From Schmidtea polychroa (lineage: Eukaryota), in contig CM097888.1 in NCBI GenBank assembly GCA_044892525.1, positions 8,370,001 through 8,434,000 on the forward strand: a stretch of DNA of 64,000 bases, written 5' to 3'. The translations under genes and the position numbers were made by a program. Each line of letters begins with the position of its first letter. Position 1 is the first letter of the stretch. The notes under the pieces were generated by a model, which saw only the letters and a list, made by a program, of their open reading frames with translations, searched no databases and was not told where the DNA came from. Positions 8,094 to 9,416 of this stretch are shown in pieces.

Positions 8094-9416
8094 ATGCATG
8101 GAGATTTCATCAGAAGAAAAATGTCATTTACCCACAAAGAATTATCCACGGCGGAGAGACATCATCTGATAATGTTTGTGGATGCAAAATTAGTATGCGA
8201 CATCAACAATAACTTAAGGCCAGTAGAGGTCAGCATACGGAATTTTAAGGGTGTAACAATATTTGATGAGAAAATTACACCTAGAACGAAAATCCTACAT
8301 TATTATCCAGAGAAGACAAAGGCCAACAAGGAAAATATCATCGGAAATAAAGATGAATACGAAGCACTGGTCGAAATCCAACAGTTACTTTGCGGAAAAA
8401 TAGTCGTAGGATTCGACATCATTGGAAAACTCAAAGCTCTCACATTAGATCTCTATAATGTTATGGGAGTTAGAGAAATGTCGGAAGATATATTTATGTG
8501 CTCGTACGTCAAAAACGTTGCGCCACACAAGATAAAATTGTCCAACCTGGCATACCAGGTAATCAGACATCACAAAAGGTGGGACAAAGATAAACGCATA
8601 AATAGAATGCTGCGTGAACCAGAACCATTTCCAGCATGGCAAACCACGATGATCGTCAAAGTGATATATGCAATCGTAGAAAATCAATGGGAAGAAGTTG
8701 TTAAATGGGACTCAGACGCCTTCAGTGAACAACAAATGAAAGATAAGTTATATCCCATTAAAGAAAGTAGTCTGGAGGATATGTCGGGCGATGAAGAAGA
8801 CATTTATATAGAACCATCGCAAATCGAATTGAAATTTAATAAAGACGGGACACGCAGGACTTTCGAAAATGAATTAATGGAAAGCGATGACGACGTAATA
8901 TTCATCGAAGAGGAGAAAATACGAATACCTGAAGCAACAGTCAAACTGGAATTACAGGAACCAAAATTCCATCCAGGAAAACTAATGGAATGCGACCTCG
9001 ACTCTGATGAGGAATACTTCTCAATCAACGAGCAAGAGGAGGAAAATATGGATATAGACGAATTGGGACCGGAACCAGATATCGCAATCGAGGAGGAACC
9101 CAATTTTATCATACCCAGGGAGAAGAAGCAGATTACAGAAAAGGAATTGACCCGACATTTTGGAAGGCGTATAAATGATGGCGACACATTGAATCTCGCA
9201 TTGGCAAAAGGGTTCAACAAAACGAGGATGCTGATAAGAGACAGCGAAATCGAGCTGGTACGCAGTATAAGAGATAATGCGGACATTATCTTAACGGCCC
9301 AGGGAGGAATGTTAGATGATGAGGGTAGGCCCATCACTACATTTACCCTAGACAAATACTACAGGACAGGGCCCAAAAAATATAGAGTAAATGTGTACGC
9401 CGAAGAGCGCAGATAG
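8094..9416 (+). CDS. Accessory ORF4: ISG20/REX4-like DEDDh exonuclease-fold domain (probably inactive) + acidic region + C-terminal domain
   Basis: MFVDAKLVC..VEVSIRNFKGVTIFDEKITP..ILHY..IQQLLCGKIVVGFDIIGKLKAL..VREMS..KLSNLAYQVI mirrors the REX4/ISG20 pattern (xxDCEMVG..ARVSIVNxxGxxxYDxYVKP..VTDY..LLxGRILVGHALxNDL..IRDT..SLKxL). In frame with ORF3, separated by one TAG. Confidence 0.7.
   Translation: MHGDFIRRKMSFTHKELSTAERHHLIMFVDAKLVCDINNNLRPVEVSIRNFKGVTIFDEKITPRTKILHYYPEKTKANKENIIGNKDEYEALVEIQQLLCGKIVVGFDIIGKLKALTLDLYNVMGVREMSEDIFMCSYVKNVAPHKIKLSNLAYQVIRHHKRWDKDKRINRMLREPEPFPAWQTTMIVKVIYAIVENQWEEVVKWDSDAFSEQQMKDKLYPIKESSLEDMSGDEEDIYIEPSQIELKFNKDGTRRTFENELMESDDDVIFIEEEKIRIPEATVKLELQEPKFHPGKLMECDLDSDEEYFSINEQEEENMDIDELGPEPDIAIEEEPNFIIPREKKQITEKELTRHFGRRINDGDTLNLALAKGFNKTRMLIRDSEIELVRSIRDNADIILTAQGGMLDDEGRPITTFTLDKYYRTGPKKYRVNVYAEERR

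Follow-up and report, generated by a model that had tools for sequence, protein, structure and literature searches.

What does the open reading frame (ORF) between pol and the 3' LTR of a Schmidtea polychroa retroelement encode, and could its product still act as a nuclease? The window that we analyzed (64,000 nucleotides of contig CM097888.1 from the assembly GCA_044892525.1, positions 8,370,001 to 8,434,000) had been described in a first-pass annotation as containing, at 8094-9416, an accessory ORF that resembles REX4 and the antiviral RNA-cutting enzyme ISG20 and lacks their catalytic residues. This ORF is present (440 codons plus TAG), but it does not start at 8094: the open frame extends back to 7083, and what had been reported is just the 3' part of a 777-codon gene, ORF3 (7083..9416; like all features given below, on the forward strand), which is split in this copy by an in-frame TAG at 8061..8063. 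We propose, with a probability of about 0.6, that 7083-9416 is the 3' accessory gene, ORF3, of a gag-glycoprotein-pol LTR retroelement of 13.6 kb, and that the gene's middle domain, of the ISG20/REX4 DEDDh type, is predicted to have lost catalysis and likely serves as a module that binds nucleic acid or a partner.

The host of ORF3 is a young retrovirus-like element of 13,555 bp with the gene order gag-G, pol, ORF3. Its LTRs, of 1065 bp each, are 100% identical, end in TG..CA and are accompanied by a CTAC target-site duplication; the 3' LTR occupies 9310..10374 and its 5' twin precedes the first nucleotide of the window by 3180-2116 nt. ORF1, which begins 1876 nt upstream of the window and is represented in it by its 3' part (1..2539, with the stop codon TGA at 2537-2539), encodes a CCHC-knuckle gag, a stretch of weak similarity to Bcl-2 (PF00452, E=1.6e-4, under the family cut-off) and, downstream of the CCHC gag, a class III fusion glycoprotein of the Monjiviricetes type (PF24664, E about 3.6e-77 to 3.4e-76). 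The pol gene follows in the same frame (2594..7225) and comprises protease, RT, RNase H and integrase (RVP, RVT_1, RT_RNaseH, Integrase_H2C2 and rve in Pfam) and a C-terminal tail of ~280 aa. The TG..CA LTRs, the target-site duplication and the PR-RT-RH-IN order are those of Ty3/Gypsy-type elements. The element also resembles Burro, the giant Gypsy-like elements of Schmidtea mediterranea, with which it shares an in-frame mononegavirus-type fusion glycoprotein between gag and pol, the BCL2-like stretch and the CCHC gag, as these are described in the accessible part of PMC6431247. On the other hand, Burro elements exceed 30 kb, and the dUTPase that they carry between PR and RT has no Pfam match in pol; ankyrin, BIR and MATH domains were likewise absent from the Pfam matches. 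The accessible part of PMC6431247 names no exonuclease ORF.

ORF3 runs 107 nt into the 3' LTR and contains, directly before it, the polypurine run AGGGAGGAA (9301..9309), which we regard as the putative polypurine tract (PPT). The premature stop means that the full ORF3 protein cannot be made at the window's locus, yet 12 of 20 close copies retain an uninterrupted frame of 776-777 codons. The first ATG of ORF3 is at 7260 and another, at 7590, stands just ahead of the conserved N-terminal domain. At least 98 scored matches to ORF3 were found in the genome. In the other close copies the gene lies downstream of the 3' end of pol without exception (19/19), and LTR similarity comes next in 16 of the 19, in agreement with the earlier placement of the ORF inside the LTRs. 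The contigs of runs X1, X2 and X4 on 5000-10400 are just short contigs of a repeated element; they include one weak joint, from 7224 to 7929, which has non-canonical ends and depends on a single contig that matches with 25 letters on one side, and they provide no evidence for or against transcription or splicing.

Three folded parts and one linker can be distinguished in the ORF3 product. The N-terminal conserved domain (7599..8060) is mostly beta, has a pI of 9.1 and is common to the ORF3 lineages with an intact exonuclease, as seen in the comparison of P0002 (residues 97-408) with P0007 (residues 2-296; E=2e-17). Its best structural matches (model range 1-151) are chains of the prolyl-4-hydroxylase type with Z 8.7-9.0, barely over the background of the method and to be taken as a lead; the domain has one conserved His only, and a search of the ESM Atlas gave no usable match for it. 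The exonuclease-like domain (8166..8699), with a pI of 8.9, is followed by an acidic linker (8700..9101; 33% D+E, pI 4.05), which contains conserved short motifs, is predicted to be disordered (pLDDT <50 at model residues 374-500) and is specific to the window's lineage. The same specificity holds for the C-terminal conserved part (9102..9413; pI 9.7), the last 35 codons of which lie in the 3' LTR. The acidic tract and C-terminal domain of the first-pass annotation are thus both present, the latter with a length of about 100 aa. This C-terminal part is modeled as beta-rich with low-to-moderate confidence, and no match was obtained for it. The three folded parts are all basic, with pI between 8.9 and 9.7.

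The assignment of the middle domain to the ISG20/REX4 type, postulated earlier from the order and spacing of motifs, is confirmed at the level of the predicted fold. A phmmer search with the product of 8094-9416 against all PDB chains yielded only two matches with E<0.01, human ISG20 (1wlj, E=3e-4, query residues 46-122 on ISG20 residues 28-104) and ISG20L2 (7yw5, E=4.4e-3). A profile of 7 ORF3 copies gave PDB matches with E=1e-4 and 1.7e-4, and a profile that included intact relatives (see below) retrieved ISG20L2 (1.7e-15), ISG20 (5.2e-11) and SDN1 (2e-7). The AF2 model, the input alignment of which also included intact relatives, was compared by VIA-align with 48,161 PDB representatives: human ISG20 ranked at the top (Z 15.9, rmsd 3.2 A, 162 of 168 residues, model range 190-368), with SDN1 second (Z 13.7) and Exuperantia (Z 10.0) and the SARS-CoV-2 ExoN (Z 9.1) among the other matches; down to rank 28, every match is either a DEDD nuclease or the exonuclease domain of a polymerase or helicase. 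The order of secondary structure elements in the model, b1-b2-b3-a-b4-a-b5-a..a, is that of the alpha-beta-alpha, RNase H-like DEDD fold. The exonuclease-like part is modeled with pLDDT of about 75-94, within a whole model of mediocre quality (mean pLDDT 61.6, pTM 0.51). In the ESM Atlas, 29 of 30 matches fall into PF00929 clusters (top score 0.95; ISG20 cluster 0.93). Since Pfam assigns the window's ORF3 protein to no family, with PF00929 absent even at E up to 10, the fold claim rests on the PDB searches, the hhalign comparison described below, the Atlas and the model.

The active site is degenerate, exactly as the three motifs had been read before. In Exo I (8181..8189) the sequence D-A-K retains D30 and has K32 in place of the Glu; in Exo II (8409..8429), G-F-D-I-I-G-K, the His is replaced by F107 and the catalytic D/E by K112, with which D94 of ISG20 aligns; in Exo III (8628..8645), F-P-A-W-Q-T aligns with H....D, the His and Asp being replaced by F179 and T184. 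The catalytic five, D-E-D-H-D, therefore read D-K-K-F-T, with the first D alone kept. This is not a peculiarity of one copy: the window's lineage contributed 32 loci, and of the 31 that could be called, 26 read D-K-K-F-T, one E-R-K-F-T, four are variant or partial and none is canonical. By comparison, 14 of the 19 loci called in other lineages (22 loci) read D-E-E-H-D. According to the part of PMC10899777 available to us, any single mutation among the five catalytic residues of ISG20L2 kills its activity. Because E, D, H and D became K, K, F and T, we predict the exonuclease-like domain of ORF3 to be catalytically dead. The two lysines could simply form salt bridges that stabilize a metal-free fold. 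The replaced positions (K/R, K, F, T) are constant across sublineages that are only 56-73% identical, which suggests constraint on the old active-site face. In addition, the window's lineage has lost the 'HGIT' stretch of the intact lineages and carries 12 inserted residues between Exo II and Exo III, so the substrate groove may be altered.

The genome also contains sister LTR elements in which a two-domain ORF3, likewise placed after pol, has intact D-E-E/D-H-D residues. Comparison of the window's ORF3 with an intact lineage by hhalign gave a probability of 97.7% (E=1.3e-12, 189 columns). The intact form (e.g. L044:775-2313; lineages E2, F and G) has the same architecture of N-terminal and exonuclease domains, but it retains D-E-E-H-D, is recognized by PF00929 (27-33 bits) and lacks the acidic linker and the ~100-aa C-terminal part. 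As sister elements carry this homologous, intact ORF3, the dead form arose inside a gene family borne by the elements, and the idea of a pseudo-nuclease captured in its dead state has to be abandoned. The accompanying view that DEDDh domains are not standard cargo holds for Ty3/Gypsy elements in general; it does not hold here, where a search of the genome with an intact relative returned 1226 first-look candidates. A PF00929 scan of the genome retrieved element copies and one host gene, which is ERI1-like (L036), and did not recover intron-split host genes of the REX4 type. In an element from a metagenome (contig L070), pol is followed by two copies in tandem, one dead (P0053) and one intact (P0084, PF00929 37 bits). 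This adjacency suggests that the dead form may work beside an active nuclease.

ORF3 is under strong purifying selection. In lineage A, dN/dS is 0.053 in the exonuclease-like domain, 0.11 in the N-terminal domain, 0.09 in the C-terminal part and 0.25 in the linker. Between sublineages pS exceeds 0.8, i.e. synonymous sites are saturated, and pN is 0.09-0.30, the N-terminal domain being the most conserved part (pN 0.09-0.15); frames of 722-791 codons are nonetheless still open. The stem that leads to the dead clade is long and supported at 100/100. A scenario of many independent losses of the active site is unproven, since the 64-row tree requires just 2 state changes. The deep branches of this tree are weak (SH-aLRT 4) and long, so a single old dead clade and long-branch attraction are both possible.

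ISG20, ISG20L2, REX4 and Arabidopsis SDN1, i.e. the REX4-type subgroup of DEDDh nucleases, share with the ORF3 domain the fold and the order and spacing of Exo I-II-III, and the ISG20/ISG20L2/SDN1 group provides its best and only significant PDB sequence matches. The ORF3 domain differs from them in the replacement of four of the five catalytic residues, in the lack of a PF00929 match and in its setting between an unrelated N-terminal domain and the acidic linker with the C-terminal part, in a gene of a retroelement and not of the host. With respect to the loss of catalytic residues from a DEDD fold it resembles the pseudo-exonucleases Exuperantia (5L80) and PML-PXL, the latter of which binds nucleic acid, as documented in the accessible section of PMC13659232. 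These, as far as that section describes them, are host genes with a TREX-like EXO domain and a SAM-like helical bundle, whereas ORF3 belongs to an element and has an ISG20/REX4-like parent; in the model its exonuclease-like domain is followed by one helix (372-383) and then by the disordered linker, with no SAM-like bundle seen and the C-terminal part being of low confidence. Nucleases of the DEDD superfamily also occur in other selfish elements, namely ExoN of nidoviruses and arenaviruses, the DEDDy nuclease of rotifer Terminons and the DEDDh nuclease of KolobokD, but, to the extent covered by the available parts of 10.1101/2021.02.01.429129, PMC6431247 and PMC9587614, these are intact enzymes from other DEDD subgroups, and none is an ISG20/REX4-type gene of an LTR retroelement. 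Among RNA viruses, the consulted part of 10.1101/2021.02.01.429129 knows such exonucleases in only two groups and ascribes to them either proofreading of large genomes or blunting of innate immunity. An ISG20-like accessory gene of such elements was not found in the literature that we searched.

We envisage that the element's ancestral ORF3 would have encoded an active 3'-5' exoribonuclease belonging to the subgroup of ISG20, ISG20L2 and the small-RNA-degrading SDN1. The window's lineage would have retained the scaffold, lost the two-metal site and gained the acidic disordered linker and the basic C-terminal part, and the three basic domains may now hold RNA or a protein partner instead of degrading RNA, in analogy to Exuperantia and PML-PXL. 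It is possible, if rather doubtful, that the dead domain acts instead as a decoy or in a dominant-negative manner, competing or pairing with an active DEDDh nuclease (a restriction or surveillance enzyme of the host, or a sister ORF3) and thereby shielding the RNA or cDNA of the element. DEDDh domains often dimerize in solved structures. In the sources as available to us, the crystal form of ISG20L2 is a homodimer (PMC10899777) and DEDDh exonucleases of vertebrate hosts restrict retrotransposons (PMC10123124); the tandem of dead and intact paralogs in L070 and the coexistence of active-type ORF3 lineages in the same genome point in the same direction. However, the ERI1-like gene is the only host DEDDh gene retrieved from this genome, and the window's element has no active copy of its own. 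It is unlikely that the fold has become a pure scaffold, in which the old active-site face has no role with nucleic acids and the domain serves as the structural core for the N-terminal domain, the linker motifs and the C-terminal part, which would act, for example, in particle assembly, trafficking or recruitment of host proteins. The loss of 'HGIT', the insertion, the conservation of the lineage-specific linker motifs and C-terminal part, and the N-terminal domain being the best conserved between sublineages would be consistent with such a role; the constancy of the replaced positions and the basic character of the exonuclease-like domain argue against it.

Maelstrom, with a DEDD-like domain that lacks acidic residues and for which metal-independent cutting was reported, provides a precedent for non-canonical, metal-independent cutting of nucleic acids by ORF3, and the strong conservation of the substituted residues would fit an enzyme of this kind. 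We nevertheless consider this very improbable, given that only one of the five catalytic residues is left, that two of the four replacements are lysines, and that every single mutant of ISG20L2 is dead in the data of PMC10899777 at our disposal. The least probable of all is a decaying relic carried by the element without any function: the premature stop in the window's copy and the stops in 22 of the 98 scored matches could be taken as signs of decay, but such a fate is contradicted by dN/dS values of 0.05-0.11 in the folded domains, by the frames that remain open despite synonymous saturation and by the persistence of the clade on its long, fully supported stem. An ORF3 protein with a middle domain that is predicted to be dead and likely binds nucleic acid or a partner is the reading that we prefer.

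For the annotation of this locus, the consequence is that the reported ORF becomes the 3' portion of a longer gene with three domains. For the biology of the elements, an ISG20/REX4-type module is routine cargo of a retrovirus-like clade in one animal genome, in apparently active and dead forms that are both under selection. This offers a handle on the benefit that a retroelement draws from an RNA exonuclease, be it counter-defense against small RNAs or piRNAs, end processing or fidelity in unusually large elements, as well as on how an enzyme turns into a pseudoenzyme inside a selfish element. It is tantalizing to consider, as a tentative idea that we hold to be well short of probable, that across a large clade of retrovirus-like elements of flatworms this module belongs to the core accessory genes, and that it exists there as an ancient pair, in which one partner is an active RNA exonuclease and the other a dead paralog that guards or steers RNA ends, with both members present in L070, the active one only in E2, F and G, and the dead one only in the window's lineage. 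If true, this would be a retroelement-encoded system of RNA decay or anti-silencing, the retroelement equivalent of what ExoN is in nidoviruses and arenaviruses, and it would reside in the very clade from which the largest LTR elements known so far have come.

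The plus-strand frame at 8094-9416, read in the first-pass annotation as a captured, catalytically dead ISG20/REX4-type exonuclease, exists as a 440-codon ORF, but it is only the downstream piece of a longer gene, hereafter ORF3, which is open from 7083 to the TAG at 9414-9416 and whose conserved protein starts about 165 residues ahead of the 8094 start. The window's copy is interrupted by a TAG at 8061-8063, so the whole protein cannot be made from it. Among the window's copy and the 19 others closest to it, 12 of 20 have 776-777 uninterrupted codons and three more have 744-767. 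The S. polychroa assembly (781 Mb in four very large contigs, about 30% GC) yielded 2774 first-look candidates and 98 scored matches to the ORF product, 76 of them, as counted from the table, without an internal stop.

Self-BLAST of the window together with 20 kb upstream from the same assembly (G000:C4) revealed one pair of direct repeats, each of 1065 bp and 100% identical, corresponding to plus-strand LTRs at 3180-2116 nt upstream of the window start and at window positions 9310-10374. They start with TG and end with CA, the duplication CTAC lies on both flanks, and the purine run AGGGAGGAA immediately precedes the 3' LTR. The whole unit is a 13,555-bp LTR retroelement, very recently inserted, and the window start falls within it. 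It carries three long plus-strand frames, the last of which, ORF3, terminates 107 nt within the 3' LTR. That the ORF belongs inside the LTRs was borne out by the other close copies: the 3' end of pol lies directly 5' of ORF3 in all 19, and LTR similarity follows ORF3 at the equivalent place in 16.

ORF1 (1876 nt upstream of the window to a TGA at 2537-2539; 1471 aa) includes a CCHC knuckle, a class III fusion glycoprotein of the Monjiviricetes (rhabdovirus/chuvirus) type (PF24664, 3.4e-76) and a Bcl-2-like stretch (PF00452, 1.6e-4; weak and under the cut-off). Gag, this stretch and the glycoprotein share one 1471-codon frame, separated by a single TGA from pol (2594-7225), which continues in the same frame with protease, RT, RNase H and integrase domains recognized by Pfam. 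Past the integrase, pol has a tail of ~280 aa (about 6390-7225) without a Pfam match and, close to the end of this tail, a hydrophobic segment resembling a membrane span; the last 140 nt of pol are overlapped by the open frame of ORF3. The unusual gag, glycoprotein, pol order and the BCL2-like stretch are the same as those described for the Burro elements of Schmidtea mediterranea (Arkhipova and Yushenova, PMC6431247). A pair of inverted repeats (646 bp, 99.7% identical; 19845-19200 nt upstream of the window start and window 24718-25363) brackets about 44 kb, the whole retroelement included, and its window-side arm adjoins a masked N stretch (25367-25494). Elsewhere, the window contains a tandem array (17194-17946) of 16 in-register copies whose spacing alternates between 24 and 30 nt, within open frames of about 200-226 codons whose sole Pfam match is weak, under the cut-off and transposase-like (PF12762, 1.6e-3); a piggyBac-type transposase fragment (22031-22912, plus strand; PF13843, 3.4e-28); and a 1195-codon frame, free of interruptions, that encodes a single fibronectin type III domain (52421-56005, minus strand; PF00041, 6.5e-6).

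Selection acts on ORF3, whose product has three folded parts. A conserved, mostly beta N-domain (7599-8060, pI 9.1) is followed by the exonuclease-like domain (8166-8699, pI 8.9), and the acidic tract and C-terminal domain noted earlier are both present, as a linker predicted to be disordered (8700-9101, 33% D+E, pI 4.05) and a basic stretch (9102-9413, pI 9.7). Protein identity among three sublineages, A (the window's), B and C, is 63-73%; in these comparisons synonymous sites are saturated (pS >0.8), with pN of 0.09-0.30. Within lineage A, Nei-Gojobori comparison of two loci (L010 and L033) gave dN/dS of 0.053 for the exonuclease-like domain, 0.11 for the N-domain, 0.09 for the C-terminal part and 0.25 for the acidic linker, in agreement with purifying selection. 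Residues 1-151 of the model (m8f1720156622; window 7599-8051), the N-domain, are predicted mostly beta, and their closest solved structures are double-stranded beta-helix chains of the prolyl-4-hydroxylase type (2jij, Z 9.0; 5c5t, Z 8.8; 7zsc, Z 8.7), which barely exceed background; the family conserves just a single His.

The DEDDh-type, RNase H-like fold proposed for the central domain is supported by both sequence and structure. A phmmer search of all PDB chains with the ORF product matched ISG20 (1wlj, E=3e-4) and ISG20L2 (7yw5, E=4.4e-3) and no other chain under E 0.3; a profile built on seven copies that represent three sublineages gave 1e-4 and 1.7e-4 for ISG20/ISG20L2 and also matched the last helix of ISG20L2. 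The Pfam RNase_T model (PF00929) does not match the window's ORF3 protein. Protein language model features place residues 268-490 of the full protein in PF00929 clusters in 29 of 30 matches (top score 0.95, ISG20 cluster 0.93). An AlphaFold2 model covering 605 residues was computed from an alignment of 18 rows; its pLDDT averages 61.6 overall and is 75-94 in the exonuclease-like part, where strands and helices follow the order b1-b2-b3-a-b4-a-b5-a..a. Human ISG20 is the model's best chain among 48,161 PDB representatives (Z 15.9, 162 of 168 residues, rmsd 3.2 A, 20% identity), followed by SDN1 (13.7), DNA polymerase entry 9qpc (13.0), Pan2 and DNA polymerase III epsilon (both 12.9), and then by Plex9.1, Exonuclease X and RNase T; Exuperantia, a pseudo-exonuclease, is matched at Z 10.0.

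PDB alignments and profile-profile alignment to an intact relative confirm exactly the replaced motifs read earlier: Exo I (D-x-E) has become D30-A-K32, Exo II (G-H-x-x-x-x-D) G-F-D-I-I-G-K112, and Exo III (H-x-x-x-x-D) F179-P-A-W-Q-T184 (numbered on the product of 8094-9416). Motifs could be called in 31 of 32 loci of the window's lineage: 26 have D-K-K-F-T, one E-R-K-F-T, four are variant or partial, and none has the canonical set. D-K-K-F-T is also present in P0004 and P0005 (56-58% identical), database proteins that belong to this clade. Since mutation of any one of the five catalytic residues is reported to inactivate ISG20L2 (PMC10899777), loss of two-metal catalysis in the window-type domain can safely be predicted. 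We put at about 0.9 the probability that the domain is ISG20-like, dead and part of an accessory gene of the element.

The "captured pseudo-nuclease" of the first-pass annotation holds as regards the pseudo-nuclease, but not as regards its capture in a dead state. A PF00929 scan of the own genome recovered one host-like ERI1-type gene (L036), no host REX4-type paralogues, and a repeated family whose open frames span 385-513 codons and encode the motifs FMDAE, VGHDLQNE and HHSA(V/L)ED. One copy sits in a 16.1-kb element with LTRs of 916 bp (99.9% identical) and the order gag, glycoprotein fused to pol, ORF3, whereas in the window's element a TGA lies between glycoprotein and pol; the two elements are 37% identical in the glycoprotein and 43% in pol. 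The sister ORF3 passes PF00929 (27 and 32.7 bits, cut-off 24) and gives end-to-end alignments with both ISG20L2 (8.6e-7) and ISG20 (2.7e-6); its family matches that of the window's ORF3 in hhalign (97.7%, E=1.3e-12, 189 columns). The two types are bridged by P0007, a database protein with intact catalytic residues: with the sister type it aligns at 4e-51, and with the window type at E=2e-17, where the alignment covers the N-domain plus the first half of the exonuclease domain. Searching the own genome with P0007 gave 1226 candidates and 84 scored matches, which represent several additional lineages whose frames stay open for about 490-590 codons; of the 19 loci that gave motif calls outside the window's lineage, 14 have D-E-E-H-D. 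In the contexts fetched, pol precedes ORF3 in lineage G, one lineage F copy has ORF3 within LTRs in the absence of pol, and pol is not nearby in the degenerate lineage H. In a 15-row tree the window's lineage, P0004 and P0005 form a 100/100 clade on a long stem, to which the acidic linker and C-part are restricted. The dead domain therefore goes back to a gene already carried by such elements, one that looks active in its other branches; it was not taken up from the host in a dead state.

Several copies have unusual architectures. The lineage F copy (L064+L065, G000:C1:171302001-171319000) has LTRs 94% identical enclosing gag, a partial glycoprotein and an intact-type ORF3 without pol, and looks like an internally deleted, non-autonomous derivative retaining the exonuclease gene. 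The sister element (L048+L049, G000:C1:194866001-194886000) has ~1.7 kb of tandem repeats between the intact ORF3 and the 3' LTR (15173-16900 of the joined stretch). The minus strand carries two ORF3-like frames of 591 codons, identical to each other and separated by 102 kb (L052 and L053, G000:C1:206877063-206878142 and 206979271-206980350), with differently degenerate catalytic positions (D-T-K-L-K) and no pol within 10 kb; they may represent a remnant that was duplicated or a copy that was domesticated. P0004, P0005 and P0067 join pieces of window-type ORF3 (in P0067 the LTR-encoded tail only) to unrelated sequence, in P0004 a tail resembling acetyl-CoA carboxylase, and look like chimeric transcripts or gene models running out of or into element copies.

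Among 1.84 billion representative proteins, the window-lineage profile found 71 at E up to 1e-3, which were aligned to the exonuclease-domain profile and sorted by the five catalytic positions: all five are canonical in 34, at least one is replaced in 19 full-length proteins, and the fragments comprise four canonical so far and 14 with a replaced position. In a quick tree of 64 rows, computed without the catalytic columns, two state changes suffice and most dead forms fall on one side; as the deep branches are weak and long, either one old dead paralogue or long-branch attraction may account for this. A 10,102-bp metagenome contig (L070) encodes an RT-RNase H-integrase polyprotein (1-6663), the degenerate P0053 (6861-8249) and an intact DEDDh protein, P0084 (8592-9923; PF00929, 37 bits), i.e. 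dead and intact copies in tandem within one element. In its polyprotein, the integrase is followed by another aspartyl protease and by ankyrin repeats.

Our full-text searches turned up no LTR retroelement described as carrying an ISG20/REX4-type gene, although Repbase or supplements to planarian genome papers might annotate one. The passages on Burro in the review name many domains, with no exonuclease in their list (PMC6431247). DEDDy nucleases are described from rotifer Terminons and DEDDh (TREX/ERI1-like) nucleases from KolobokD transposons (PMC6431247, PMC9587614).

ORF3 thus encodes a conserved, selected, three-domain accessory protein, with a central ISG20-like fold devoid of catalytic residues. 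Ancestrally it would have been an RNA 3'-5' exonuclease in the service of the element; its nearest solved relatives process or degrade RNA, as does SDN1, which degrades small RNAs. The window's lineage would then have converted this enzyme into a binding module, for which Exuperantia and PML-PXL, a DEDD pseudo-exonuclease for which nucleic-acid binding has been shown, provide precedents (PMC13659232). The old site holds K, K, F and T without change, which, together with the basic surface charge, favors a role for that face, and the loss of 'HGIT' and gain of a 12-residue insertion in the window-lineage domain argue that the groove has changed. Nucleic-acid binding is a tentative assignment for window-type ORF3, ranked before the readings of the protein as a decoy or as a scaffold. 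Finally, the tandem pair in L070 suggests that such a dead protein may cooperate with, or control, an active nuclease.
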